Assembly (NCBI GenBank): GCA_051294905.1
Contig: CM119372.1
Span: forward strand, 11,162,001-11,226,000
Direction of reading: 5' to 3'
DNA: 64,000 nt
From: Botryllus schlosseri
Taxonomy: Eukaryota
The notes below the pieces were generated by a model. The model saw nothing but the letters and a program-made list of their open reading frames with translations, did not search any database and was not told the DNA's origin. Position numbers and translations under genes: made by a program. This document shows, piece after piece, positions 2,285-45,620 of this stretch (position 1 is the first letter of the stretch; each line of letters begins with the position of its first letter).

Positions 2285-4057
2285 TAGGGATGCCATACGT
2301 CCGGAATTTCCCGGACATGTCCGGAATTTCACCTTTAAAACTGCGTCCGGGAGGAATTTCTAAAACATGCCTACTAAATGTCCGGAATTTTGAAGTAAGC
2401 TCATAATGTTTTACTAAATCAACATAAACAATATTATTTTCGGGCAGAATGACGCTACATGAAATTTTTCTTCGCGCTGCGCGCGATTTAGTAGCACATA
2501 TATTGGTTTTAATATGGTGACTACCACCCTCGCAAAAGCTGCGATCAAAAATAAATAAATAAAAATAACATTCAGTTACAGAAATAAGTCTAATTGTAAT
2601 TGCAATCACAGGATAACGGTATATTCATAAAGTCGGTTTAGGGCGTTTGGACATGGCCTAACGATGTACATTGTACAATTACGCTCCTTGCATTTTCGAA
2701 GTCATATCATCCTCCACCATAGCTCTACCGCAAACTCTGATCATGTGGGCGGAGAGAGGATCAAATTATATAGTAATATATGGAAGAACCAATATTATTG
2801 ACACAATTCATTCAAATCAATTAACGACCAGATGCATATAGCAGTGTTGGGATGACTCGAGTCATGACTTGACTTTGCTAAAATGACTTTGCTTTGCTTG
2901 ACTTTGCTAAAATGACTCGACTTGACTTGACTTGGCGTGTCAGAAAAGTGGATTGACTCGTGACTCGGAGCAAAATTCACGAGTCAATTTCAAGTCATCA
3001 AGTAATCGGTGTCGATAAAAATCACCGTATCTTGCATATGTTCGGGTTGTTCGCGAAACGCTGGTGTAACCCGTGAGAGCGACCAATCATTCGAGGATCG
3101 TGCGTTTTACTGAGCCTCCAATGTTCTTTCACAAAACGAAGTGATCGAAGCTTACAGCTTACCTTGTCGTAAACTAGTAGTAGCCTAAAGCAATAGAATA
3201 GTATAATATCTATTTTTCTTCTCTGTTCTTACCTTAACCAAACCTCTTGTTTTATTGAAATTGAATTCGAATATAATTTATCTACTCCTCAACCATCTTT
3301 TTATATCATATCAATATGTAAATGGATTATGTATTGCATCTCATCAATTTGTTTTTCTCTTCTCTGTTTTTGGTTGATAACTATAAACTGAGGCTATATG
3401 CAATTACTTACGTAGTTCAACAGTTCTACGTATATGATGAGCTATATACTGCGCCTTCTTGGGTGTGTATATATTCAACTCTATATTCGTTCATCGGTTC
3501 AGAATCAATGACCTCTCGATCTGTATTTCAGAAAGCTAGCAAAATGCAATGACGTAACCTTGCCTCATACTCCGAAAAGCCCACTTGACTTGAATTGTGA
3601 CTTGACTCGTGACTTGACTTGACTCGACTTGACTCGAGTCACCTCCAAAAATCGAGTGACTTGACTTGACTCGAGTCACCTTCGGAAATCGATTGACTTG
3701 ACTTGACTCGAGTCAAAATGTGCAATGACTCGAAATAACTCGTGACTCGAAGGTAGTGACTTGATCCCAACACTGGCATAAGCCCTCAGAAACTGCATCG
3801 ATTGCCCTACTTTGGGCTCAAGATCAATGTTTATTTGGACGGGAGGGGGCAGAAAAATGTGGCTTCGGCCCTGGTTACAATAAATTACAACATACAACCA
3901 CATACTCCTGAACCGGATCGTGACCACCTCTAGTCGATAGACAAAGCTTGGCTGGTGTGACGTCATATTCATCAATGTGCTCATACCTCATTTTAAAATC
4001 CGTTAGTGGACGCTAAAGAGCGTCCGGAATTTGTGTTACAAAAATATGGTAACCCTA
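2285..4057. mobile_element. hAT MITE, Blackjack-like (family A2), with a nested family B element
   Basis: Ends TAGGGATGCCATA / TATGGTAACCCTA, GTCCGGAATTT repeats; homologous to 26041-27141; TSD degenerate. Confidence 0.75.
2842..3775. mobile_element. hAT MITE (family B, TGACT pentamer arrays)
   Basis: TIR CAGTGTTGGGAT; subterminal GACTT/GACTC arrays; partial TSD (GCATA). Confidence 0.85.
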
Positions 4058-6037: not shown

Positions 6038-8558
6038 GCACAGCAGCTACACTCAATGTTTTATATACATTTAAATTATACAGGATTGGATGCCATGTTT
6101 GAATGATTCATAAATATCAGGATAGTAGAGAGTCCATGTTATAAAAACTTACAAAATATGTAAAAGGAAGGATATTTAGCTAGGCATTCTGTCATGTCAA
6201 TTGCATGATGGATAATTCGAGCTGCGCCACAATGAAACAATTTTGCATGCCGTCGTTAATCATATGCTTGCATATGTTTAATGGTTATATGTTAGTCATT
6301 TAACCGTCGCTGTGTGGCATATAATTTTCGAAGTAGCCTAAATGGGTAATACTGTTGGAGTCGTAGTTCTGTTAAGAAAATATAGTCGGAGTCGGTATAA
6401 GTTTAAAGACTCGAGAGTCGGTATATTGAAAATGTGTGGAGTCGGTGGTGAAATTTACCTACTCCACAGCCACGTTCGTTAATACTACACTTGATCATAA
6501 GAATGCGCCGACTACGCTTGATCGCCGACCTCTGTATTACACTAACTGGGTGGAATTCATGATAAGATTTGTCCGACATTTGTTGCTCCGGAAAAGACCG
6601 CCATATTCTGTTTAGTTTAGATGCTTTAGTGAAGGTGTGTGCAACGAGCGGATGCGCAACAGTGAGATGCAGGGATTTCGAGGCCAGCCTCTGTCGCAAC
6701 GGGACACACGCGAAGACATCGAGTTCCGGCCAATCTACGGCTGGGCAAAGTGAGGTGGCAACAAGATCGGCGATGATAAAACCTTAGCCAAAATTGACCG
6801 TCGCTGGTTGGCTATAAAACCTACGATATTGATATGTCTGTCAGACATTGTCTGGTCGTTTTAATGGTCGGCTCCGAATAGTGACTCCCTTACAATCTGA
6901 GTAGACAGCAGTACAAATACAGACAGACAGACAGACATTTATTGCTTCGTCAAACATAAAAAGTTGACTGGAGGTGACGATATGGCCAATAAAGGCCTTG
7001 TTACTCGTCACCTCCACGGCAGTGAAGTAATCAAGTGTATTCATTTTAATAAACATAACAGTGGACAGTCTGCAACATAGAAGAAAATAATAATCACAAA
7101 TATATATAACGAAGACAGCAACCATGGTAACACACCAGGTAAAGCAATATGAAATCAATAAATGGATGTATAATATATAAATAACACAATACAAATGCGA
7201 CCCGCAGAGCAAATAATGCACCCCAATTTGAAATCGCGTCGTGCACGTTGTCAACTTTCTCGCTCAGCGCCCATTTTCGTACACATTATCAGTTGGTTGA
7301 CTAAAAAAAGGCTCAGCTCCCGAAATTACTGCCGGAGCGTTACTTCAGTGCTGATTTACTGTATCTCAGTCGAATTTTGCCCTTATGTTTAACCAAGATT
7401 CTAAAAAAGAGAACAAAATCTCAGAAAGGAGGACATTTAGGCGTCCTCGGAGGACCTTTTCAAAAACGAGGACAAATCCTCGTAAAGGAGGACGTATGGC
7501 AATCGGCAACCCTACGCTATTCATACAATCAAGTAGGGTTGGGAAAAATCGATTCGATGCTGAATCGAAATACATGCAATTTCTGCGTGGCGAGATAGCA
7601 TAGTGTAGGCGGGTTACCAAATTTTGGAATCACAAAAGGGGGATAATTAAATAGTATATTCATATTGAAATGAACCCGAATATTTTCGGCTGACACTCGT
7701 CAGGGGTAATCGTCAGCAACTAGTAGAGAATTGGAAAGAACATTGTATATCAACAATCGTATCACAAAATATGACGTCACCAGCATGAAATTTCGAATGA
7801 GAGAGACGTTCAATGTACTATTTTTAGGTGATACACGAACTCCTTTTGTTGACAGAGTTTTGGTTGGTGTATTTTGATAAAAGTTGATTCCAAGGCACAC
7901 AAATGGAATTGTGAACGGGGATACTTTTACTATAGAATGCAAACATACATTACATTCTATACTTTTACCAAATTAGGAAAGTTAGTTGATCAAGACTGAA
8001 AACAGCCTATTTTGCTATTTTTAAAGGTCATTACCAGATCGATTTTTTTACCTAAAAAATTTAGACATTTTTGACTTTAAAAAATATAATTTTGACCTAA
8101 CGTAAGCAAATTGGGTGTTTTCCCATATGTTAGAATTGTACTACTTTACTTCATTTCTGGTTGGAACTGTCTGTCCTTACGAAGTAATTTGGCCTGAAAC
8201 TCTTTCGACTAAAAAACTGACGAATTTTTACTCGAAAAAACTTTATTTTAATGAAATCCAGCCCTGTGAAGAATACCAGGAGTTACATCACGAATTACGG
8301 TAGAAATAATTAAAATAAAACGAAAGATACTTTCCTACATTCTCGGGTAGGAAGTGTCTGGATGGCCAGGTCTAATCTGTTATGCACTCCTCTCAAAAAT
8401 ACGGCGCATTTTTTGCGAGTGAAAAATGCTTGCTGGCAGAATTCCTTTTTCAGAGCTGACACAAAGGTCCTGGAGGCTCCAGTTTGTCGAAAGGGTGAAA
8501 GCCCTTTTTCCGTATGTCTTAGAACATAAGGTGCAAAACGATCAAGGAGAGTATAGGC

Positions 8559-9498
8559 CAGTGTTGGGATCAAGTCACTACCTTCGAGTCACGAGTCATT
8601 TCGAGTCATTGCACATTTTGACTCGAGTCAAGTCAAGTCAATCGATTTTCGAAGGTGACTCGAGTCAAGTCAAGTCACTCGATTTTTGTAGGGTGACTCG
8701 AGTCAAGTCGAGTCAAGTCAAGTCAAGTCACGAGTCAAGTCACAATTCAAGTCAAGTTGCCTTTTCGAAGTATGAGGCATGATTACGTCATTGCGTTTTG
8801 CTGGCTGTATGAAATACAGATTGAGTGATCATTGATTCTGAACGAACAAACGAATATAGAGTTAAATATACACGCAAGAAGGCGCTGTATTGCTCACATA
8901 TACGTAGAAATGCTAAGCTACGTAAGTAATTACATAGTCTTAGTTTATAGTTACCAGTCAATATACAGAATAGAAAAACGAATTGATAAGATGCAATACA
9001 TTACCCACTTACAAATTGACATGATACAATTCGAGCCTGCGCCAATGGTTGATGACTATAAACTATATTCGAATTCAATTTCAATAACACAAGAGGTTTG
9101 GTTAAGGTAAGAACAGAGGACAGAAATATGCATTTTGCTACTTTACTATACTAGTTTACGACATCGTAAGCTATAAGCTTCGACCACTTCGTTTGCGGTC
9201 GAATTATTTGTGAAGGAACAATAGAGGCACAGTGAAACGCGCGATCATTGGATGATTAGTAGCTCTCACGGGTTACACGAGCGTTGCGCGACCAATCCGA
9301 CCATATGTAAGATACAATGATTTTTATCGACACCGATTATTTGATGACTTGAAATTGACTCGTGAATTTTGCTCCGAGTCACGAGTCAATCCACATTTTT
9401 GATACGCCGAGTCAAGTCAAGTCAAGTCATTTTAGCAAAGTGACTTGAGTCAAGTCAAGTCATACGAAAAAGTCATGACTCGAGTCATCCCAACACTG
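8559..9498. mobile_element. hAT MITE (family B), complete
   Basis: TIR CAGTGTTGGGAT; perfect 8-bp TSD GTATAGGC. Confidence 0.92.
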
Positions 9499-9619
9499 GT
9501 ATAGGCACATTAGAGCTCGCTACCTTATGATACGTTGCTCCAACTTAATGTTTCGCGAGTATATGAGAAGAGCAAATAAACTCACGATATTAATTGTGTG
9601 TTCTTCTCTTCAGCTCAAT

Positions 9620-15001: not shown

Positions 15002-15120
15002 GGTTGCCAGTGAACCCGTCCCTCGGTGAACCCGTCCCGTGAACCCGTCCCTCGGTGAACCCGTCCCTCGGTGAACCCGGCCCTCGATGAACTCGGCCCT
15101 CGGTGAATTCCGCCCTCGGG
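15002..15120. repeat. Tandem array of ~16-bp GTGAACCCGTCCCTCG units, probably a foldback MITE end
   Basis: About seven units decaying from left to right. Confidence 0.75.
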
Positions 15121-15469
15121 AAATTTTGAAATTAAGTGTATTAACAAGTATTAATATGAATTATTAAACTAATAATGTTATTATCAACTGATTTGTCGAT
15201 CTTGTAAGGAGGTCAGGGCATGCGTAGATCACGCAGTCACGGAGTGATCAGATCACGTGATCACGATTGCGTGGTCGGCTCATTGTTGAATTGACTTGGC
15301 GAGGGGCGAACGTGCGACGTTCGACATCCTCGTTTCTGTTCATGACATCGCATTGGGTCTTATCGCATTGTATATTGTGTGTGACTTGTTCAGATGAAAA
15401 ATATATCCCAACGATTGTTATTGCTCACATATCAACCACGCGTGGTCTGCTCGTTATTGCAACTGTAGG

Positions 15470-15808
15470 TTGAGGTGGGGTGTTAGGGTTGGCCGGTTGG
15501 GTAGGGTAGGGGGAGACATTAGGGTTCGAGGAGTGGGACATTGGGTTCGGGTAGGATACTAGGGTTGGGGGAGGGGGGATATTAGGGTTGGTGGAGGTGG
15601 GACATTAGGGTTAGGATGTTAGGGTTGCCGGAGGTGGGATATTAGGGTTAGGATATTAGGGTTGCCGGAGGTGGGATATTACGGTTGGGGGAGGGGGGAT
15701 ATTAGGGTTGGGGGAGGGGGGATATTAAGGTTGGGGTAGGATATTAGGGTTGCCGGAGGTGGGATATATTAGGGTTGGTGGAGGTGGGATATTAGGGTTA
15801 GGGTTACA
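15470..15808. repeat. G-rich minisatellite (GGGATATTAGGGTT-type units)
   Basis: Repeated TTAGGGTT cores separated by G-runs. Confidence 0.85.
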
Positions 15809-17337: not shown

Positions 17338-17583
17338 CGAGGTAACACGTAAAGGTAAACAAATAACTGTAGTATAACCTGTGCTAAAGAGCAAGACCAA
17401 AATGAAATTTATATTTTCGCAAACAATACCGCGGTAGCTTTCGATTGATACACATTTTATCGAATTTAATGCTCGACAAGCCGGTCAAAAATTACCGTCA
17501 ATTTGCCTTTGATCAAATAGAAGTGTGACGTAAACCAATTTCATTGAGCCGTGAGATTTGCTTTTGTCCACGCCATATAGGAC

Positions 17584-17623
17584 TATTGAACATAACTAAC
17601 CTACCGTAGGTTAGTTATCTATA
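17584..17623. mobile_element. P-type excision footprint (two TIR stubs joined directly)
   Basis: TATTGA(AC)ATAACTAACCTAC-C-GTAGGTTAGTTATCTATA flanked by the perfect 7-bp repeat ATAGGAC. Confidence 0.7.
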
Positions 17624-19089
17624 ATAGGACACTATAGATAACTAACCTACGGATAGATGGGCAACACGTGATTCACGGTCGAGAGCCCAGATGCCGTCAG
17701 ATTTGTTGTCGCTTCATAGCATGAAGCGGCAGGTTGTTGGCCAGATTGATGTTTGGTGCAGATAGGAGGCCAGCCACTGGCGCGGCTATCATTGCATTAA
17801 TATCAGGAGGATATTTCGTGGGAAAAATAAGTCATGATATTCACTCTATTATTAATTGGTTTCAATATTGACTTCGGCTGAGATTTCCTTGAACTATTTT
17901 GGTTTGTATGATCATTAGAGCGGCCATGTTTTGACATGTCAAAATCGTAGTAGTACAAAAGTTGCCTATTTCTGAGCCAAAAACGTTTTTTGATGCTAAA
18001 CTACTTCGTTAGGACAGCTATAGTTCCTACCAGAAATGAAGATCTAAGAAGTTGGCTACAATTTTAGCATTATGTGGTCAAAAAAAACGCCCTAATAATC
18101 AGAAATAGGTTTTAGTATGTATTGCTAAATAAAGAAAATATGTTTTCATAATCCAGTCATAATTGATATGGAATAACTATATTTCGAATTACTGACTGAG
18201 GATATCATGTGTGCGTAGTGCTTGGCACAATTATTCTCGAATCTGAACATAATATGATTGCGGTGGAGGATGCATCAACGAGTCACAACTGGAGCTATTT
18301 CACTTCATCAAAGTCAGCTGTCATAAAATAATCCAGTTTTTAGGCAACATAGTCTTCTTGCTTTGCATGTTGATACTGCCTAGCCATGCAAAGATTCCTC
18401 CTATGTAAAAAAGAGGTAAACCAACACTATGGCTGAAACCTTGACGTTGGTGTGTTGGCTTTTGTCCAATATCAGCTGGCAATTCACTTCGCGATAGTGA
18501 CATATCAAACTGACACATATATCCTCAGTATTTATTATTTTCAATATTTAATATTATATTATATATATTATTCAATCGACTTTCGCTTGGGTATTGGGGA
18601 TGCATCGTAGGGCTTTGCCGATCTTTTCATTGCCTTTGATTGGGTGACATGATGGATGTCGTACGCTAGCTGTGAAATATCCGGATCTGTCCGTCTTCTC
18701 CCCATTTGTCTCTGCAATCACAATCCCAGTCAATAATCCTCCCCATTTGTCTCTGCAATCACAATCCCAGTCAATAATCTAACGCAGGGGTGGGCAAACT
18801 ACGGCCCGCGGGCCGCATGCGGCCCGCAAATCCGTTCTGTGCGACCCGCGAGAGTCTAAATAAACTTTTTATAAATATTGATACTATGCGTACTAAAAAT
18901 CGAGTTAATGCAGGGACTTGATCAACTTTTTCTTAGTGTATTTCACCTTGATAATTCTTATAGACAGTGCATCTGAAGAGGCGCGCGCAGCTGAGCTCGA
19001 CTGAAAAATGCCTCTAGCACATCTTGCGTGAACGTTCCAAGGGCCAACTTGGGCATTTCTTCGATGAGACGATCGCATAGAGTCTATGC

Positions 19090-20771
19090 CACTGGTTCCC
19101 AACTTTTTTCGACTCATCGCCCCCTTTTCAAACTCCACACCGATCATCGCCCACCAAATATTGGGAACCGAACAATGGGCATACAGACTGAAATCACTAG
19201 GCGAGTCGACTACGAAAAAAGTCAAGTTTTCGGCTCGACCTCGAAATTACCCTTTTCCAGCTAAATTATGGTCAGTTGACTAACAAAAAAGGTGATTTCT
19301 CCGACTTATGATTCCCAAAAGACCGCAACAGCACTTCGTCCCCCCTCCCCAATACGTTGGTCTTAACCCCCCCCCCCCTCCATAGGGCGATAAAGCTAGT
19401 TGGATTAATTCGCGCGAAGCGCGAAAAATTTCCATCATTCATGATTGAATCGGTCAATATGATCGGAAATTGCATATATATAGCTGTCAATTTTTTATCC
19501 TCTCTCTGCTCATGTATTCAGATTTACCGGTAAAGCTGGGTGAGGTGTTTCGGAAAATGTGGGGCCCGTAAATAATAATTGAAGATATTCGGGCGGCCTC
19601 GTCGGTATAATGACTTCGTTACGTAATGAAATTTTGTGGCCTGTCTGCAATGTAAAAAGATATTCAAATCGCACATACGTACTAAACTAAAAGACGCACA
19701 CGATTTAAAATTGGTATTTCTGCACTGGCAATCAATTTTTATCTGCGAGATGGCAGTTTGGTTGTGGGGTTCTGATTGCCAGGACAGGAACATTTAGGCG
19801 CCTATTGACAATTAAATATATATGTATATTAGGCTTACCATATTTTGGAAATCAAAAAAGAGGACACTTTTTCAGAAATTTGCAACTTGCAAAACCGGAG
19901 TAAAATTCTGAAAAACCGGGTAATTTTTCCCGATCGGTTGACTAAAAAAAAAAAGGTCATCACTTCTGCTCAGAGCTCAAAATAACGTTTTTTACTCCAC
20001 ATTGCCAGGTGGATGACTAAAAAAAAAAAAAATAAAAGGTCATCTTTCGCTCAGAGCTAAAATCACCGTTTTTCACTCCGAAATAGCCGCCGGAGCTTCA
20101 CTTCTGTGCTAATATGCGGCATATCACTCGCAATTTGCTCTAAATCTGCCTAAATTTTCAAAAAAGAGGACAAAATCTCAAAAAAGAGGACAAAAGGGCG
20201 TCCTCCGAGGACACTTTCAAAAAAGTCGAAAAAGAGGACAAATCCTCTTAAAAGAGGACGTATGGTAAGCCTAATGTATATCGTATATATATCGAAGTCG
20301 GTCAGCATAAAGGCAGTCCTTTTCCGCCAAGGTTTTCTCGTTCTGGCACACTTCTCGGAGTCGCATATGTTACATGGCCCGAAACTGCATATGTCTTGGT
20401 GCGTCATGGTGTGATAATAATGGCTGACGCCGAGATGCCCATTTCTATACCTCATGCGTATTATTACTTGGAGGAAGGGTATCCAATAAGCAAGAAACAT
20501 CTGACCACGAAATGGCGCGCAGCGCGAAATTTTTTTGAAAAAGTTGCCTAAATTTCCTAAATAATACGCTATAATTAATGTTAATTCACGAAAAAATTGT
20601 GGGCCTCCTTCAAGCCGCCCCCCCATCTCAATTGGGGTTTGGGTGTGGCAGTTACGGACATGGACGCCGATATAGCCATTTCAACGCGCCATCGCCCCCT
20701 TCGTCTGTTTTCGCCCCCTTGGCTATTTTCGCCCCCCTGGACCGACAAATCGCCCACGTTGGGAACCACTG
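19090..20771. mobile_element. hAT (Charlie/Buster-type) MITE in the left foldback arm
   Basis: TIR CASTGGTTCCCAAC; perfect TSD GTCTATGC; absent from the right arm. Confidence 0.88.
19830..20273. mobile_element. hAT MITE (family A), nested
   Basis: TIR TAGGCTTACCATA; perfect TSD ATGTATAT. Confidence 0.92.
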
Positions 20772-22746
20772 GTCTATGCCATAGACCCACCATATTCCGT
20801 GACGTGAAAATTAGGCCTTCCATTGTGGGTTTTGCCATCATTTGTTTTGGCTCACCACGACTTGCAGCATATTTCTAAAAAATTACATGATAACCCAAAA
20901 ATATCTCGAATAATAACGATATGAGGAACTGACCTTCCAACTCAATAATCGATCCGCAAATTCACTCAGCAATGTAATTCTTTCATCGTCCAGGCTGCAT
21001 ATCGGATAACTAATGCGGCATGTGACGATATTAAACCATCTGTTTTAGGTCATAAAATCAAGCCCCTTGTTATATAAGTGAAAATTCCATCCAAATTTCA
21101 TTGCGTGGCGCACCACACACCCTTTCGCGACAAACGTTCAAACCACTACAGACAATAGAGCGAATAGCTGCGGGACTCATGCACTTTGGGACCAAAAACA
21201 CATTTTCTCCGTAAGGCTGTAGTGAGTTTAGTCCGAAAGTGCACGAGCCCCGCAGGTCCGTCAATTACATGTTCCAGAATCATCATCCAAAAGTGGAAGA
21301 AAACGTTGAAAATTTTGACATTTTTCGACTTGGTCTTCGTGGTAGAGAACAGATCTACAAATTGGGATCTATCATCGTTTCTTAAAATGTCTTCGCGGCC
21401 CAAGTGGGCCGCAGCCAACCGGTTGAAAGGCACTGATCTAGACCAGAGGTGTCAAACATATTTTTTGCCTACTTTAGATCGTGGATTTAAATTAACATGG
21501 GCCAATGTAAATCCGGACTGGTAAAGTGCCAGGCTGCGCGAATCCACGTCAAACAGTCTTTGGATATCCGTCCATAATATATCTTGCCCTCTCCCATTCA
21601 TGTTCATGTATCGAGATCCCTCTGCTTTCGATGAATAGAGAGTTCCGTGTGGTCTGTTAGGAAATAAGAATATATCGGGTATGGAATTTCGGGACTGCTT
21701 TCACATGGTAGGCCTCCTAACATTTAATAAGTCAAGTAATACCCAGAATTTTCGTTGCGCTTCGCGCGCAGTAGATATGGCGTGACAAATATGTTTAAAC
21801 GAAAGTATCACTGAATATAATTTAAGATATCGGGTTACGTTCACACAGCATCACAGTAAGTATGCCCCCCCCCCCCACCATAACATTTGATACTATCGTT
21901 TCGCAATCTAGCAGTAACATGACGTGTCCAAATCCGGAAAAGTGAACCTTGACTTTTTTTCGTTAGACTTAGACCTGTTCTAGCAGACCACCGTTGAAAC
22001 TTTCTGGACAAACGACACATTATATATTACCGCTTTTTTTGTATTTTTCTTCAAATTACGGGCATTATTGTCATTGTTTCAGTTATTGTGTAAAATTTTG
22101 AAAACATACGAACTGCCATATTTTTAATCAACGTTTACTAATCACGCAAAGTGTTGAAGCCGTATCCGACACAACTTGTCACCAATGCTCATCGACTAAA
22201 CTAGGCGCCTTATAATATGGGGGAGGCGCCATGCCATGATATTCTCTAAAACGGGGTGTTCAAGTAAACAAAGAATTAGTAGCACATTCCATATCAATAC
22301 TATCATTTACATCCCATGATATGGACGACTGCCTATTCTGTCAAAAATTGACCCCGCCTGGGATGCATCAATATGAATCAAGCTCTTTACTCCTTCCTCA
22401 TAGCTTTTAGCAGTCCATGCGAACGAATTACGATAGTTTTCAAAACTACTTACTTGAGTAGCTTTAAAGTCAGTCAATTCTACTTCTACTCCAAGTAGTT
22501 TTAGGTTTCTTACGGAAGAAGTACTCATACTTGAGTAGATTTTTTCATCGCTACTTCTACTTCTACTTCTACTTGAGTAGCTTTCTTGACTACTTTGACT
22601 ACCTCTGGTAGTGCTCACCGTACTACAATAATATGATCTAAACTTATCAAGTAAAGCTGCCTTGAGGAGATGCTGAGGATCGGAGCATAGAAAAATTGGC
22701 CTTTCAGGAGCGTACGGATTTGGATCAGTAAAGAGTCCATCTAATG

Positions 22747-23921
22747 CAGCGGTTCCCAACCTTTTTGGTGCCGTGACCCTTTTATAACATTTGACAAGTT
22801 GCGGTGACCCCAAGGATAAAATTAGTTGAGTTGATCCTCCTTCACTGCACTTTTGGAGCTAACTAGTAGGGTACTAGGCTGTATATTAAATTTTACTTCT
22901 AAATAAATAAACAACACAACAAATCAACTTATCAACACAACAATTTGTTCAGTGAGAAGGCTGTGCTTGCTTCTTTTTAGCCAGATCTGAAATCCTTGGA
23001 GCAGTCTTTGCAAGAGCACAACGCAGATCATCTTCTGCATCCAGTCTGCTCCTGTATTTAGATTTGATAACCAACAAGCTTGAAAAGCCTGTTTCACAAA
23101 GGTATGTTGTTGGAAAAGGAAGAATCAGGCGCAATGCGATCTCAGACAGAACGGGATATGACTGCAAACTCTTGATCCAAAATTTGGTAACTGACTATGA
23201 AGAAAAATCAGTTTTTGCTGCATCACTGGTAATGAGTTCAATGAACTCCTCTTGTGCATTCTCAGGAACATCTCATAGACTGGGCCTGTCATATTGAATC
23301 TAAAACATCATTCTAAAGAACTAAGAATAGCAGCCTCGGAAATTCGGTCAGCTGTTCATGACCAATCATTATTATGAAGCTGCAAGGGCTTCCACTGACG
23401 TGTGGGATCGAGCGCATCAACACCTGAACCAATCCGGCATTTTAACGGTAATTTTGTAAGTACGTGCAAAAACGATACTCACATTCGACATCGGAGTACT
23501 CAGACTCAGTCTCAATATCACTTGGCAAATCCGTTACAATGGAAACCTCGGCCAGACTAGAATAAAAACTGCGAGAACACAAACAGCCGCTGTGACCGGT
23601 GTTGATAATATGTGTCATTCACTTGCTGTCACAATGCACATTCTGCCTTTTCTGTAAACATGCCAATATTGGAACTTTCAGTCAAAATTACGGCAATTTC
23701 CGATTGAGTTGAAACACGGAAAGTCGGTAATTTCGTCATGAAAAAAAATTCTGAACATGATTCCGCAAAGTTGTCATGAAGATGCAGTTGACCTTTAAGA
23801 GTTAACTTTCTAAATTTCTAAACTAATGAAATTCTAAACTTTTCAGAAGGCCTCAGGTGACCCCAGGCAAATTGTCAGGCGACCCCAGTTGGGGTCGCGA
23901 CCCACAGGTTGGGAACCGCTG
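22747..23921 (-). mobile_element. Buster/Charlie-type hAT deletion derivative inserted in a P transposase exon
   Basis: TIR CAGCGGTTCCCAACCT; perfect TSD ATCTAATG; ORF 22949-23167 LPFPTTYLCETGFS...KYRSRLD...QAQPSH is a Buster-type C-terminus. Confidence 0.92.
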
Positions 23922-25598
23922 ATCTAATGGAATCTTCTTTGTCCCAGCAATAACCTAGGCCTAATTTTCACGTCACGGAATATGGTGAGTCTATGCGATC
24001 GTCTCATCGAAGAAATGCCCAAGTTGGCCCTTGGAACGTTCACGCAAGATGTGCTAGAGGCATTTTTCAGTCGAGCTCAGCTGCGCGCGCCTCTTCAGAT
24101 GCACTGTCTATAAGAATTATCAAGGTGAAATACACTAAGAAAAAGTTGATCAAGTCCCTGCATTAACTCGATTTTTAGTACGCATAGTATCAATATTTAT
24201 AAAAAGTTTATTTAGACTCTCGCGGGTCGCACAGAACGGTTTTGCGGGCATTTTTTGGAAATTTAGTAAGATACTTAAACGTAATAAGGCGTTAGATTAT
24301 TGACTGGGATTGTGATTGCAGAGACAAATGGGAAGAAGACGGACAAATCCGGATATTCCACAGCTAGCGTACGACATCCATCATGTCACCCAATCAAAGG
24401 CAATGAAAAGATCGGCAAAGCCCTACGATGCATCCCCAATACCCAAGCGAAAGTCGATTGAATAATATATATAAGATAATATTAAATATAGAAAATAATA
24501 AATACTGAGGATATATGTGTCAGTTTGATATGTCACCATTGCGAAGTGGACTGCCAGCTGATATTGGACAAAAGCCAACACACCAACGTCAAGGTTTCAG
24601 CTATAGTGTTGGTTTACCTCTTTTTTACATAGGAGGAATCTTTGCATGGCTAGGCAGTATCAACATGCAAAGCAAAAAGACTATGTTGCCCAAAAACTGG
24701 ATTATTTTATGACAGCTGACTTCGAAGTGAAATAGCTACAGTTGTGACTCGTTGATGCATCCTCCACCGCAATCATATTATGTTCAGATTCGAGAATAAT
24801 TGCGCCAAGCCCTACGCACACATGATATCCTCAGTCAGTAATTCGAAATATTATTATTCCATATTAGTTATGCCTGGATTATGAAAATATATTCCCTTTA
24901 TTTAGCAATACATACTAAAACCTATCTCTGATTATTAGGGCGTTTTTTGACCACATAATGTTAAAATTGTAGCCAACTTCTTATCTTCATTTCTGATAGG
25001 TGCTATAGCTGTCCTAACGAAGTACCGGTAGTTTAGCATCGAAAAACGTTTTTGGCTCAGAAATAGGCAACTTTTTACCACTACGATTTTGACAAATTTT
25101 GACATGTCAAAACATGGCCGCTCTAATGATCATACAAACCAAAATAGTTCAAGGAAATCTCAGCCGAAGTCAATATTGAAACCAATTAATAATGGAGTGA
25201 ATATCATGACTTATTTTGCTCATGAAATATCCTCCTGATATTAATACAATGATAGCCGCGCCAGTGCCTGTGTACTGTATCACTAAATAACCTGTTGTGA
25301 TTGCCCTATATCCTATCTGCACCAAACATCAATCTGGCCAGCAACCTGCCGCTTCATGCTATGAAGCGACAACAAATATGACGGCATCTGGGCTCTCGAC
25401 CGTGAATCACGTGTTGCCCATCTATCCGTAGGTTAGTTATCTATACTATGATGCGACCTTTGCATCGCATGACTCAGAGGCGTGGGTACTCGAGTGAGTC
25501 GAGTCGCTGCTGGGATCTCGTTACACCGCGAAGAATTTCGATGCAAGTGAATTCCATCGTGCATCCTCATACCTCTGGGCTTCGTGGTTTTTTTTATA

Positions 25599-28500
25599 AT
25601 GACTGCGCCGGTTACGGTAGATTTACATCTGAATCCAGATGATTTCCAATCGGGTGCTTTGGAATTGGTACGGCTTGTAAGGCCGAATTGGACAGATGAA
25701 GTCGTATTAAAGGTAACAATCCATCTGGAGCGTCGGAAAATCATTTAACTGGTTGTATTATGTTACGCAGGTTTTTTCAAATGGTATAACCAATAAGATG
25801 CTGGGATATCATCGCAACGGCGATGAGTCGGACATGGTATTAATACGAATTAATGGAAATAAAACAGAAATCTTCCTTGATCGAGAGAACGAGGTTAGTC
25901 AACTTGCTAATCGTTGAATGCTTGTGCAGACACACGTAGTCGCAATGGAAATTAGGTGGAGCTGATCAACTCTCGATAATGGTAAGACTGATCGATTCCA
26001 TTGTAAAGTGCACAAAAGCAATGTCAAAGTCCATTTATATTAGGGTTGCCATACGTCCGGAATTTCCCGGACATGTCCTGGAGGAATTTCTAAAATATGC
26101 CGAAATGTCCGGAATTTTGAAGGCTTGAAGCAGGCTCAAAATTTTTTCGTAAATCAACATAAACAATATTATTTTCAAGCAGATTTATGCTATTCAAAAT
26201 TGTTCTTCGGGGCGCGGGCGAGTTAATGCAGCGTATAATGATATTAGTATGGGCTCCAGGCACCGACCACCCTCGCCAAAAAATGCAATCAAAATAAATA
26301 TAAATAACCATCATTTACTGAAATAAGTCTGATTGTAATTGCAATTATAAGCTAACGGTATATTCCTAGAGTTGGTTAAGGCCGATTGGATGCTTCAATC
26401 ACAGACAGTGGCTCCAAATCTTGGGGTTGTCCGCCTTTAGCTGGAGATTGCGATGATGTTGGACGTAATCAGCTTCCTAGGCCGTGAGTAAGTTTGGACA
26501 AGATGAATTTTTTTAGTAATCAGCAAGTTTTAAGCTTTGCCACGGAACATTTTCAACTGGGAAATGAGGTCGCGAGCATAAAAGGCTGGAAATCACCGGA
26601 TGTGCAACCTGCTGGTGCATTTTATAGTCGTCTAATATATCGAAGAATCAATATTATTGACAGAATTCATACATAAAATTTAACAGCCAAATGCATATAG
26701 TAAGTGCCCAACAAGTTACATCGACTACCCTATGGTGGGCCCAAGATCAGTGCTTTTTGGGCGGAAGGGGGGGGGGAGAGAAAATGTTGTTTCGGACCTG
26801 ATTAAAACACATAAACAGATAGCCGCACCGACGTAGCTGTATAGCAGGCCAGCAGGGCTGTCAAACACAAACCTGACAGGCTAAACACGGCCCGCCAGAG
26901 GATTTCATCCGGCCTGTGGAGGGATCTATTGCAAACCCTAGCAAGTAGCAATCGCCAGAGCTCACATTACAGATGGCCCAATTCATGACCTATGCTCCAC
27001 TTCATTCCTGTATACAGTGTATACAGTCGATGAGCAATGCTTTGTTTGTGTGACGTCATATTGACGGTCACCTCATTTTAAAATCCGCTAGTGGGCGCTA
27101 AAAGTGTCCGGAATTTGCTTCACAAAAATATGGCAACCCTAATTTATATCATCTTTTACTTTCGATTCAGTATGCATGCCTCCTCTTTATATTGTCTTGG
27201 CCAAGGTGGACATGTCTGATTTCAAAGACTACTTCAAGTCGTATCGCAATTTTGTGGTGTATCGAATTGATAAAACTTGCTAATATACCGAACTACACTG
27301 ACTACTGGTTTGCTAATTTCAGATTAAAAGTTTTATGAAATTGCATGCAGCTGGTTGTGCTCCCGAGTTATATTGCATTTTCAACAATGGACTTTGCTAT
27401 GAATATATTCCAGGAACTACCATCACAAGAGATGAAGTGAGAAGACCAGAAATGTTCAGGTATAAATTTCTAAATTATGCTTATCAGCTGTTATTATATT
27501 CTTTTGCATATATTTGCAGTTTAATCACTAAGCAAATGGTTAAATTGCACAAGATTGAGCACACTGACACCGTTGAAAAACAACCCAACTGTTTCACTTT
27601 GTGCAAGCAGTTTTTAGATCTTAGCTTTTCATCTCGTGCACCACCAGGCCGCAGGTACTTCTGTTACAAACCATTTCGAAACATGTTGGTACAACCTCAC
27701 ACTTGATTCTCAAATAGATTGAATGAGTTTGGCTCAGTTGAAGAAATTAAGCTTAGGGCAGAGCTAACTACCCTGGAGCAACATCTTCCTTTGCTATCAT
27801 CTCCATTGGTGTACTGTCACAATGATCTGCTACTTAACAACATCATATACAATAAAAGGAAAGGTACCGTAGGCTTGACAATATTTTGAGTGTGAATATG
27901 TTTTGAACTGATCAGTCAATTTGTATGTGCTCAGAGACAATTCATTTCATTGACTATGAGTATACTGGAGTTAACTACCAAGCTTTTGACATTGGGAACC
28001 ATTTCTGTGAATTTGCTGGTAAGTTGTTTGTGTAAGTTATTTGTGTACATCAGGGGTGGGCAACCTTTTTCATATTCACGGCCGCATTTCGATTACTTAT
28101 GTAGTCTACGGCCGCACTCCTGTGCATAAGCCGTAATCAACTAACTGGGCGTCAAATACCAATGTTGTACCGTCCATGTCCATTTCAGTTGAATTCCAGA
28201 CTTATCTAATTTCTCATATCGGCTTACTATACACACCGGAATCGCGAGTGGCCATGTTTTGAACAATCACCGTGAAAGTGATGGTCGCGCCAAGCGTGAA
28301 AATTTTTTCAGATTCACAATTAAATTTCGTCATCATTATTAGTATACTCACATATTGCAATCAATTATTTATCCTTTATCAGCCCATGTGATCAGATCCA
28401 CTGGTGGAGTTGATAGAGGTGGTGTCTTCCGAAATTTAGGGCAGTTGGTATTGGTCACTTTGTTGCATGCTATTATTTCCTGACCTTCCATCAGTATTGT

Positions 28501-30021
28501 CGGTAGGCTTTAAAGCGGAAATATATTGGAATCGCCTGAACCAGAGGTTCCCAACCTTTTCGGGTGTCGGGACCACATTTCAAACTTCAGTGTACAAATG
28601 GAGCCGCATGAAAACACTGAAGTATAGGCTACTTATAACGAAAATTTAAAGGTAGCTAGCCTACCTCTGCTCTCACCATTGAGTTGATTCAAAAGCATGC
28701 ACATGCACAATTGCACATATTCTTCTATAGATTCTATATCAGCTAATTTAGCATTGATACAAGCAAATTAACAAGTACTATAATGTCTTGATGTGATACT
28801 GATAGCTATTCATACATTCCTGCACTTTATGCACAAGTTTGCGGGGAATTAAACACTGAGCAATGTTGGATTTATTGCAATGTATACTTGTCTATAGATG
28901 AGCCTTTACTTTGATGTTAGTAAAATTGTGTCGAAATTTACTCCTTACAGAGACGTGATATAAAGGTCTATGACCAGCAGAACGCAAGATACATTGTTGT
29001 CTGACGGGTATTCATCCATGCGTTTGACGCCAGTCTGCAAGAATTCTCTTTCCCAACTTTCGGAAGCGGCCTAATACGGCTTTAGACATAACTAATGTCC
29101 CGCATTTTAGCATTCATATGCAGAAATTGCCTATAACTATTCATAGAAACAAGCAACAACTGTCCTCTATTATATTATTGTGGCATATTTAGAGGTCAAT
29201 CAGAGCCGCAAGAAGGCTTTCTTGGAGCCGCATGTGACTCTGAGAATCACTGGCCTAAACGTATCAGGAACAAATTTTTTTCGTGAGAAGCACACTATAC
29301 CAAGTTGGTATTTCTATATGGGGCGCATCATTTTTATCTGCTGTTCGCGTCTGTACTGTTAGACTCAGATTGCAAAGGGCACTACTATGAAGTGAAGCAT
29401 TGAATCGCGCTCAGCGCAAGGAAAATTTCAAGATTACTTGAAATTCAATTAATCAAAATTTCAATTTGCCCGTTGACGGCCGCCAACACATACTAATTAA
29501 ATTACGTGTGACGGCAGCACAAATTTCCTTCTACGGCTGCAGGTTGCCCACCCCCCGGTGTACATGAATTTCGTTTTGTGATAAAATTACCTGGAGGCTG
29601 TTTCTTCAAGGTGTTGATGAATTGGACTACTCCTTCTACCCTGGCCGAGATTTGCAGTTTGCATGGCTGACAGAGTATTTGCAACATTGGACAACAGATG
29701 GGCCTGTGACCAGTGATGATGTTGAAAAACTGTACATCCAAGTCAACAAATGTGCTTTGGTAAATTTTCTCGTACTAGTTGCAAACAATTACGGTCGAGA
29801 AATATGTTATTTATTATCAGATGTCACATCTGCTGTGGGCAACCTGGGCACTTGTTCAAGCCAAGTATTCAAATATTGATTTTGACTACGTCAAGTAAGG
29901 CTTATAATAATGCATTATTGCACCATGATACAATTTACCAGCTTCACTCAATTTGAATAGATATGCCAAAGACCGAATTGCTGAGTACTACAGCAGAAGA
30001 GACGAGTTTCTTTCACTTTAA
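25599..30021 (+). CDS. ETNK1: Ethanolamine kinase (ETNK1/ETNK2 homologue), 9 exons, 340 aa
   Basis: Exons 25599-25712, 25771-25893, 27323-27459, 27520-27654, 27718-27863, 27935-28018, 29611-29759, 29821-29894, 29961-30021, all GT-AG and in frame. Motifs GITNK, CHNDLLLNN, FIDYEY, FDIGNHFCEFAG. AATAAA at 30073. Confidence 0.95.
26041..27141. mobile_element. hAT MITE (family A2) in ETNK intron 2
   Basis: TIR TAGGGTTGCCATA; perfect TSD ATTTATAT. Confidence 0.92.
28051..29557. mobile_element. hAT MITE in ETNK intron 6, with a nested MITE at 28542-29252
   Basis: TIR core GGGGTGGGCAACCT; perfect TSD GTGTACAT; inner element TSD GCCTGAAC/GCCTAAAC. Confidence 0.85.
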
Positions 30022-43734: not shown

Positions 43735-44131
43735 AAAGATCATCGCTCTATCAAATATGCCGGACATGATGTGTGGAACAGTATCCCGCCGGTCATCCGG
43801 CAGTCGACGAGCATGTCCACATTCAAGTCGAAATACAAGCAATTACTAATAAATAAATACAGTCCATCCTCAAGATTACCGGACCACGACTGACCTATCG
43901 ATCTCGCTTCCCATGACATGCCGCCCTATTTCTTGTCGCTTCCTTTTTCTATACTATCTTCTTTACTTTCATTCAGTCTGCATGCCTCCTCTTTATATCG
44001 CCTAGGCCAAGATGGGTGTCTGATTCCATAGACAACTCCTAATCGCCTCGACATCTTCTTGTCTTTTCATTGTATCGCATTTTTTGAGGTGTATTGAACT
44101 GATAAAATTGCTAATAAACCAATGATGATGA
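43735..44131 (+). mobile_element. CR1/L2-type LINE 3' fragment
   Basis: Encodes RSIKYAGHDVWNSIP...FKSKYKQLL; (ATG)n tail. Confidence 0.85.
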
Positions 44132-44421
44132 TATCACAAAACATTCAAAATTCGGGAATCCGGTCTGATTATGTTAGCATTTGAACGTAGGGCTCCGGCT
44201 CCCGCTGCAAGCCCTGGTAATGAGGCATGTGCTGACTACTGATAGATATACATATATATATATAGATACACATATATGGGTTATATGTAATTGGTATTGC
44301 ATGTTGGCCTATATATGACTGTCTGTTTAATGTATGAGGTGACCAGCTGACTTGAAGACCTGAAGGCCGTATCGCTGGCCACCATTTCACAGCATTACTT
44401 TCTTACACCTGAAAATAAACT

Positions 44422-44452
<31 letters not shown>

Positions 44453-45098
44453 GAGTAGAGCTCCTCTCTCCTCCATGGCTAAAAGTGGTTCCATTTGGTG
44501 ACGTAATATCGCGCCATTCATCCGTCGATTAAACGGCAAAACCCGAACATATTTCCCTTGTGCCACAATTTATCATATGTGGCGGATAATATCGGCTTAG
44601 TGTCGGTTCAGGTTTAAATCAGTCTTAACTTTTGGAACAGTTTTATATATTCCACTCTTGCTACTCTGTAGCGTGGCCACCGGCCATGGCCAGGTGGCCT
44701 CGGCGCCGAAAAGACGCCGTGTCAAGTGTAAGATAATGAAAAATACGACATATTCATATATATTGACCAGTTCAGTTTATTGACAAATACATCCGATCAA
44801 TACAACATAAGATTACGATACAATGAAAATAGGAAGGCCTAGCAGCGACTTGGGGTAGTCTTTGAAATCAGCTACACCCTAGTCGATGTCAAGATGATGC
44901 ATAATTCACACCATTACACATTTGCAAACTAAATGAAAAGTAACAGAAGATAACACAAATATAGGACACGCAACAAAAAGAGATGGCTTGTGACGGAAGG
45001 CCAGGTCGCTATACCACATCGTGGTCCAGTAATCCCGAGCGCTGACATGTATTTATTCAGTATATAGAACTTGCTTTCAATGTGGACAATGGACAGGA

Positions 45099-45620
45099 CA
45101 TCATCATCATCATCATTGGTTTATTAGCAATTTTATCAGTTCAATACACCACAAAAATGCGATACAATGAAAAAACAGGAAGATGTCGAAGCGACAAGGA
45201 GTAGTCTATGGAATCTGACACCCACCTTGGCCTAGGCGATGTAAAGAGGAGGCATGCACACTGAATGAAAGTAAAGAAGATAGTATAGAAAAATAATGCG
45301 ACAAGAAATAGGGCGGCATGTCATGGGAAGCGAGATCGATAGGTCAGTCGTGGTCCGGTAATCTTGAGGATGGACTTTATTTATTTAGTAGTAATTGCTT
45401 GTATTTCGACTTGAATGTGGACATGCTCGTCGACTGTCGGATGGCCGGCGGGATACTGTTCCACACATCAGGTCCGGCATATTTGATGGAGCGATGATCT
45501 TTTCGGTCGATCATATGATATTTGGACGACGTGGACGCGCGTGTGTTGTACTTGTGCGCTTTTGATTGCTCGTCGACTTCTGGATTCCCGTCGAAATATC
45601 GTTCCACAGTTGCCATATAG
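45099..45620 (-). mobile_element. CR1/L2-type LINE 3' fragment
   Basis: ORF 45377-45643 HKYNTRAS...RSIKYAGPDVWNSIP...FKSKYKQLLL; (ATG)n tail. Confidence 0.88.

Follow-up and report, generated by a model that had tools for sequence, protein, structure and literature searches.

A foldback transposon in Botryllus schlosseri belongs to a dispersed, non-autonomous P-superfamily family with chimeric arms

What is the large inverted structure at positions 17633-25445 of a 64,000-nucleotide stretch of the Botryllus schlosseri genome (assembly GCA_051294905.1, contig CM119372.1, 11,162,001 to 11,226,000; the whole stretch is called the window), and how was it formed? A first-pass annotation made from the sequence alone described it as a 7.8-kb foldback built from two 3' ends of a P-superfamily transposon, and proposed a role as a hairpin-RNA silencer. 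Our analysis assigns the element, whose transposase relic lies on the minus strand, to a non-autonomous P-superfamily foldback family with at least 17 copies dispersed in the genome (16 two-armed copies were found besides that of the window). The first-pass annotation missed the two-gene parent of this family and the host kinase gene that flanks the window copy.

The foldback with its inverted arms is real. The self-comparison that had been suggested as a check gives 17633-19084 against 25445-23987 as the dominant inverted match of the window, and the aligned arms are identical at 1358 of 1411 bases, with 53 differences in addition to indels. The left arm consists of 17633-19081 and of 39 bp at 20780-20818, split by a nested hAT insertion, and the right arm spans 23957-25445. 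The terminus TATAGATAAC is read at both element ends, in agreement with the TATAGA-type termini first described. On the minus strand, the motifs DPQHLLK (22681), DDERI (20990) and TQDVLEAFFSR (19029) follow each other in the order noted before, and a second TQDVLEAFFSR is found on the plus strand at 24042. The terminal 'SR' of this motif is misleading, as it is derived from a miniature inverted-repeat transposable element (MITE); the parent sequence reads EAFFGNL there. The loss of the THAP part was recognized correctly: the window element lacks both the THAP and the helix-turn-helix (HTH) exons, and most of the parent's second gene is lost as well. The size of 7.8 kb is right for this copy, but two later hAT insertions make up 2.9 kb of it. 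A typical copy of the family measures 4.9 kb, has 1.3-kb arms and is co-linear with the other copies.

A genome search with the outer arm gave at least 41 matches, a lower bound given that 40 of 1001 candidates were scored. The loci retrieved comprise 16 paired candidates and seven single ones. Both termini are present at all 16 paired loci, and 15 of these copies are flanked by an exact 7-bp target-site duplication (TSD); the sole exception, L036, has a flanking deletion. The reported lack of a TSD is therefore a property of the window copy and not of the family. Across 17 sites (15 foldbacks, L048 and L050), the TSD consensus is GT(A/T)3AC-like, with symmetrised counts of G 18/34, T 30/34, A 30/34 and C 18/34 at positions 1, 2, 6 and 7. 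The copies differ from one another by 1.3% in the 5' arms and by 1.8% in the 3' arms. This P family has inserted repeatedly at the end of one MITE family (window 17584-17632; L032, L036, L039, L089 and L090), and L032 is bordered by such a MITE end on one side and by the terminus of a different P family on the other.

The arms themselves are chimeric. Each is made of ~0.63 kb of the parent's 5'-type end, an 18-bp filler and an inverted piece of the 3' interior. Over positions 500-655 of the reference arm, both arms diverge by 3-5% from the 5' end of the parent, compared with 21-24% for the 3' end; positions 341-500 have a counterpart in the parent's 5' end only. The description as two 3' ends does not survive this comparison, as the outer ~630 bp of both arms are of the 5' type. 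In the left (3'-side) arm, this outer part occupies 17633-18247 (plus strand) and is followed by the filler (18248-18265, plus), whose template lies in the parent's 5' interior at parent position ~2220. Then come the last ~20 codons and the stop of ORF2, the parent's second open reading frame, which is C-terminal-domain-like (18266-18326, plus), the last transposase exon (RQMGRRRT...KRKSIE stop; 18571-18711, minus) and a MITE piece that we take to be of the hAT type (approximately 18787-19005, no strand assigned). The right (5'-side) arm (23957-25445, plus) carries the inverted catalytic-Glu exon, the MITE piece, the last exon and the ORF2 tail, then the filler (24765-24782) and the true 5'-type end (24783-25445). 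Read from the filler inwards, the arm passes through the last 20 ORF2 codons and, in reverse, through the last and the catalytic exon, before it joins the RNase H exon.

Between the arms lies a single-copy loop (20780-22738, minus), which contains the middle transposase exons (RNase H and GTP-binding domain) and a family-wide ~0.9-kb insertion. In a Pfam search, the short exons of the window element alone gave no match. The two nested insertions both have 8-bp TSDs. The first, a non-autonomous hAT-type element at 19090-20771, has the TSD GTCTATGC and contains a common MITE at about 19830-20274. It is flanked by a short inverted duplication, GCATAGA-G-TCTATGC (19075-19089 and 20772-20785), which looks like the footprint of an earlier hAT excision, possibly re-used as a target. 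The second, a hAT deletion derivative at 22747-23921 (minus; TSD ATCTAATG), retains a dimerisation-domain remnant (PF05699, E 1.7e-5).

Both junctions of the arms recur in the family. The outer junction has 18 exact matches, all of them inside foldback copies, including the two window arms. The inner junction, where the inverted catalytic exon meets the RNase H N-terminal exon, could be read in 15 of the 17 copies. In the window copy, it falls within the palindrome TAGGCCTA (23956-23963), exactly where it had been placed. The importance given to this palindrome does not hold up: it is found in just six of the 15 readable copies and was rejected as the cause of the junction.

Nine diagnostic sites separate the 5' from the 3' arms. 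At these sites, mosaic conversion tracts are visible in L036, L039, L043 and L046; the 3' arm of L036 is entirely of the 5' type, and L043 has one mosaic that is common to both arms. The MITE piece is present in the 3' arm of 16 of the 17 copies and additionally in the 5' arm of two, the window copy and L044. Arm-to-arm conversion has also been proposed for the Drosophila element Galileo, according to PMC3573991. Traces of comparable exchanges occur outside the foldbacks: L048 carries a decayed ORF2 start, middle and tail already within the 5' end of the parent (oriented positions 600-780), and the 3' terminal inverted repeat (TIR) of L061 includes the THAP start codon. Judged from L048 and L061, end-to-end copying happened repeatedly and in both directions.

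The templated filler suggests template switching in break repair, and this part of the origin proposed by the first-pass annotation can be kept. The other part, a local hybrid-end accident, is contradicted by a dispersed family that moved as a unit. In the scenario that we favor, a two-gene P element would have been broken in its 5' part, and 18 bp of the 5' interior would have served as the first repair template; a stretch of ~0.75 kb of 3' interior would next have been copied in the opposite direction, until the repair returned to the RNase H exon. Through conversion, the 3' side would have exchanged its ORF2 body for a 5'-type end, a step that could precede or follow the formation of the fold. 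Cut-and-paste movement, duplicating 7 bp of target, would have dispersed the symmetric product, with gene conversion between the arms likely preserving its symmetry and a putative related split transposase likely mobilising it in trans. The window copy would have gained its two hAT insertions later.

This scenario is close to what is described for Galileo. In copy 147 of D. willistoni, more than 500 bp of the transposase lie in both TIRs (PMC4168063). Galileo, as represented by this copy and by the 2RT class of D. mojavensis, also belongs to the P superfamily and shares with the foldback the ~1.5-kb TIRs with more than 500 bp of the transposase 3' end, a fragment of another transposable element passed between the TIRs and the existence of non-autonomous copies (PMC4168063, PMC3573991). 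Its 7-bp TSD has the consensus GTANTAC (PMC4168063), comparable to the GT(A/T)3AC-like one of the foldback. The analogy with TIR extension drawn in the first-pass annotation is supported by the chimeric arms, the conversion tracts and the 7-bp TSD. In contrast to Galileo, the extended form gave rise here to a whole family (at least 17 copies), and the 5'-type end is present in both its arms. Galileo has one open reading frame of ~900 aa, whereas the parent of the foldback has introns and two facing genes. Compared by its features, the foldback works like an extended-TIR derivative of the Galileo kind, and its membership of Galileo fails on gene structure.

The parent type is recognized in L048, L050 and L052, which contain 2.5 kb of 5' sequence missing from the foldback, including the THAP and HTH exons. 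It has terminal repeats and a multi-exon THAP transposase gene, which stops short of the C-terminal domain. The assignment to the P superfamily is confirmed by parent exons that match PF12017 (6e-7) and PF21787 (2.7e-9). The half-domain THAP exon matches PF05485 at E 0.0013, below the cut-off, and the first exon has a CxxxxC start. An annotated Ciona protein, P0037 (635 aa), is 59% identical over the RNase H exon, can be aligned to the exons of the window and matches chain A of 6P5A, the Drosophila P transposase structure, at 4.5e-19. Longer homologues came from a profile search; a search with a single exon had given none. An RNase H transposase with HTH and a GTP-binding insertion, as is typical of the superfamily, is thus present, with THAP in the parent only; so are TIRs and a TSD in the 7-8 bp range, the window copy's own TSD being degraded.

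The second gene of the parent, ORF2, is an intronless frame of 309 aa on the opposite strand near the 3' end, intact in L050. A genome search with ORF2 gave 130 matches. Of 20 further loci retrieved around these matches, 17 have transposase pieces that face ORF2 from the other strand, three have none in range, and in no locus are the two on the same strand. In the eight elements listed, the final exon of the transposase closes with a basic tail followed by a stop. This two-gene layout is common to families down to 28% ORF2 identity, and MuDR likewise has two convergent genes between long TIRs (PMC3440606). The 34 ORF2 relatives in the representative library are all at most 331 aa long. In four unsaturated ORF2 pairs, dN/dS (the ratio of non-synonymous to synonymous rates) is 0.10-0.25; a fifth pair is saturated.

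ORF2 resembles, at the level of its profile, the C-terminal domain of the P transposase. The best PDB match of the profile is chain B of 6P5A, the C-terminal domain of the Drosophila protein (E 1.9e-4), and 19 of 29 members of the ORF2 family match Tnp_P_element_C at E up to 0.1, the best at 1e-5. The ESM Atlas gave no usable match for ORF2. A C-terminal domain within the same polypeptide as the transposase was not found, the ORF2 profile matching the antisense strand only in nine of nine elements (best sense-strand independent E-value 0.76). ORF2 may supply the C-terminal domain in trans. The Drosophila P transposase (6P5A/6PE2) has the same order of THAP, HTH, RNase H and GTP-binding domains, and footprint-like remnants of both ends are found in both systems. 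In Drosophila, however, the C-terminal domain is in the same protein behind a disordered linker, as presented in PMC7776569, whereas here it would be a separate gene on the opposite strand. The Drosophila element also has 31-bp TIRs and 8-bp TSDs, versus 7 bp here.

P0037 ends 65 aa past the catalytic motif. Two P-type transposases of other organisms, P0046 (785 aa) and P0037, end 65-78 aa past this motif, without a C-terminal domain. Taken together, the sequences suggest that a split P transposase may be widespread. Our search of the literature, which did not extend to Repbase and subscription journals, yielded no paper on a P transposase that is split or encoded by two genes. The P elements of Ciona are reportedly the subject of a 2009 paper.

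Several seemingly complete two-gene P elements with TIRs, belonging to several diverged families, are present in the genome (L061 on C4, L067 and L076 on C1, L068 on C8 and L073 on C10). Three of them (L061, L068 and L076) have their exons in order without in-exon stops and are flanked by 7-bp TSDs, making them candidate active split transposases. L069, L070 and L077-L081 are deletion derivatives in which the ORF2 region remains but the transposase is largely gone; L069, L070, L077 and L078 still have an intact ORF2, perhaps an effect of ascertainment, ORF2 being the query. About 35 matches, forming a numerous family, with open frames of ~166 aa (e.g., L085) cover the C-terminal half only of ORF2-like sequence at 28-30% identity, and no transposase piece was found in the one locus of this kind that was retrieved. 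L061 has the same 22 terminal bases as the foldback, and its exons passed a rough check for order and stops. It is the likely mobiliser of the foldback.

At its right end, the window copy is close to a host gene. A choline/ethanolamine kinase gene extends over 25599-30018 on the plus strand (PF01633 on four of four exons tested, E 8e-11 to 6e-5), and its ATG at 25599 lies 154 bp past the element. On the left, the element abuts a pre-existing high-copy MITE end (17386-17632), within which an excision-footprint-like mini-element of the TATAGA family is located (17584-17623). This MITE-plus-footprint arrangement is also found at two other loci, and a local hop from the adjacent footprint was rejected on these grounds. 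An empty allele, consisting of the footprint end, eight extra letters and the right flank with the kinase reading frame directly downstream, is present in contigs of the probable-RNA runs X6 and X12, which come from different studies; two of the four runs compared were informative, X20 having no contig over the flank and the X5 contig starting at 25452. In the X6 contig, the first kinase intron is spliced out at GT..AG. A DNA contig, possibly from the source sample, crosses the filled right junction with 0 differences. The simplest reading of the empty allele is that the TSD of the window copy was CTATGAT, likely surviving at 25446-25452 (plus), and that 6 bp were lost on the left, where the copy is cut to one base. 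The empty allele in X6 and X12 shows the insertion to be polymorphic, and its site likely falls within the kinase leader. The window copy likely separates the host promoter from the kinase gene, and its most likely effect is that of a local insertion allele, not of a host-selected silencer.

A number of observations weigh against the proposed history. L038 and L045 have common flanks and may be one event, and no intermediate with just one converted arm was seen among the copies examined. The search for an intact parent, proposed in the first-pass annotation, delivered the two-gene parent type but no direct parent with an intact transposase and a near-identical 3' interior: the closest 3' parts are 94-95.5% identical to the foldback, and those of L048 and L050 83-84%. 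ORF2 itself matches Pfam below the curated cut-off, and the enzyme attributed to L061 is deduced from its sequence. The 'RNA' label of X6 and X12 is a guess, and their contigs show no start, strand or copy of origin. With these points taken into account, we give a probability of about 0.83 to a foldback family with a single origin by template-switching repair, a symmetry kept by conversion and mobilisation in trans by a related split transposase.

The silencer would be compatible with this history as an added function. Read-through across the arms, driven by the kinase promoter or by inward promoters of the element, would give a ~1.4-kb RNA duplex, and small RNAs from it would silence the P family. 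The insertion site inside the spliced kinase contig of the empty allele offers a plausible driver, and promoters in the ends are plausible since both L048 genes start within 0.4-1.0 kb of them, as in the MuDR case (PMC3440606). Between the two arms, 720 21-mers are perfectly conserved, and 161-260 of these also have exact matches in parent-type copies. X12 contains a 400-bp contig that is 98.5% identical to a foldback arm, as well as a spliced joint of the catalytic to the last exon, whose donor letter is that of the foldback 5' arms and not of L048, L050, L052, L053 or L054; this joint could reflect outward transcription of an inverted arm. A MITE-free parent segregating in the samples explains the joint as simply, however, and the donor letter is also that of L064. 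Two observations speak against silencing: the foldback had already formed when its copies, at least 17, arose, and spliced sense transposase joints occur in X6 and X12 (none in the DNA run X1 among the matches listed). Plus-strand AATAAA signals at 18128 and 18859 lie in the first arm, before the 4.9-kb loop with its two hAT insertions, and the likely mobiliser L061 has only 6 of the 720 arm 21-mers. The raw RNA run X22, which carries another organism label, has reads in five bins, nearly all running into unlike sequence, and provides no evidence on expression.

Like maize Mu killer, the foldback is an inverted partial duplication of a gene of an active family, with two 5'-type ends and a host gene next to it (PMC3440606). 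Mu killer belongs to another superfamily and occupies one locus; its silencing has been demonstrated, and what it duplicates is the 5' part of its transposase. The foldback is a mobile family that duplicates 3' exons and would be a putative silencer only. Moreover, according to one paper, silencing by Mu killer did not go along with read-through from the neighboring gene (PMC3440606). On balance, we regard a silencing function as unlikely. An extended version, in which the foldback would be a dispersing Mu killer with an inward promoter at each end, directing double-stranded RNA against the parent while evading silencing itself because an L061-type sister with identical termini, which shares almost no 21-mers with it, moves it, and driven by the kinase promoter at this locus, appears more doubtful still.

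A different question is whether the long arms could be the native TIRs of an autonomous Galileo-like element, with the short-TIR two-gene copies as a side branch. The long TIRs of Galileo may indeed overlap the transposase end and are accompanied by 7-bp TSDs (PMC4168063). This would be hard to reconcile with the absence of the THAP and HTH exons from all 17 long-armed copies, with the truncated ORF2 tail and templated filler inside the arms, and with a two-gene layout that reaches across such distant families; we judge it improbable.

A one-off local rearrangement by hybrid-end or aberrant transposition, joining two 3' ends and leaving no TSD for that reason, would fit the window copy, which has no intact TSD and adjoins a footprint-like mini-element. 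That footprint, however, belongs to a MITE found elsewhere, and the empty allele accounts for the loss of the TSD. The same inner junction in 15 of 17 copies, the exact outer-junction matches confined to family members and the dispersed copies with TSDs of their own refute the idea, which we consider highly improbable. An assembly artefact is the least credible of all: long inverted repeats are prone to misassembly and no single read or contig was seen across the whole element, but the arms differ at 53 positions and by indels, fixed 5'/3' differences recur at 17 loci and the DNA contig confirms the right junction.

Other repeats are present in the window as well. A G-rich, telomere-like degenerate tandem array (15465-15803) and a 16-bp tandem array (15007-15112) are located upstream of the element. 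Other inverted-repeat pairs, at 2833-3780 / 8554-9507 and at 43735-45502, come from common non-autonomous elements.

The formation of foldbacks by TIR extension was already known from Galileo in flies. Here, the genome of one non-fly animal shows every step, from the templated filler and the conversion tracts in the arms to the spread as a unit. If the copy in the kinase leader did give rise to a hairpin RNA, animals would have a natural equivalent of Mu killer, for which haplotypes with and without the insertion could be compared. The parent is split at the position of the disordered linker, which suggests that the C-terminal domain can probably act as a separate subunit. Such a split transposase would bear on the assembly of the P transpososome and on the design of controllable two-part transposases.

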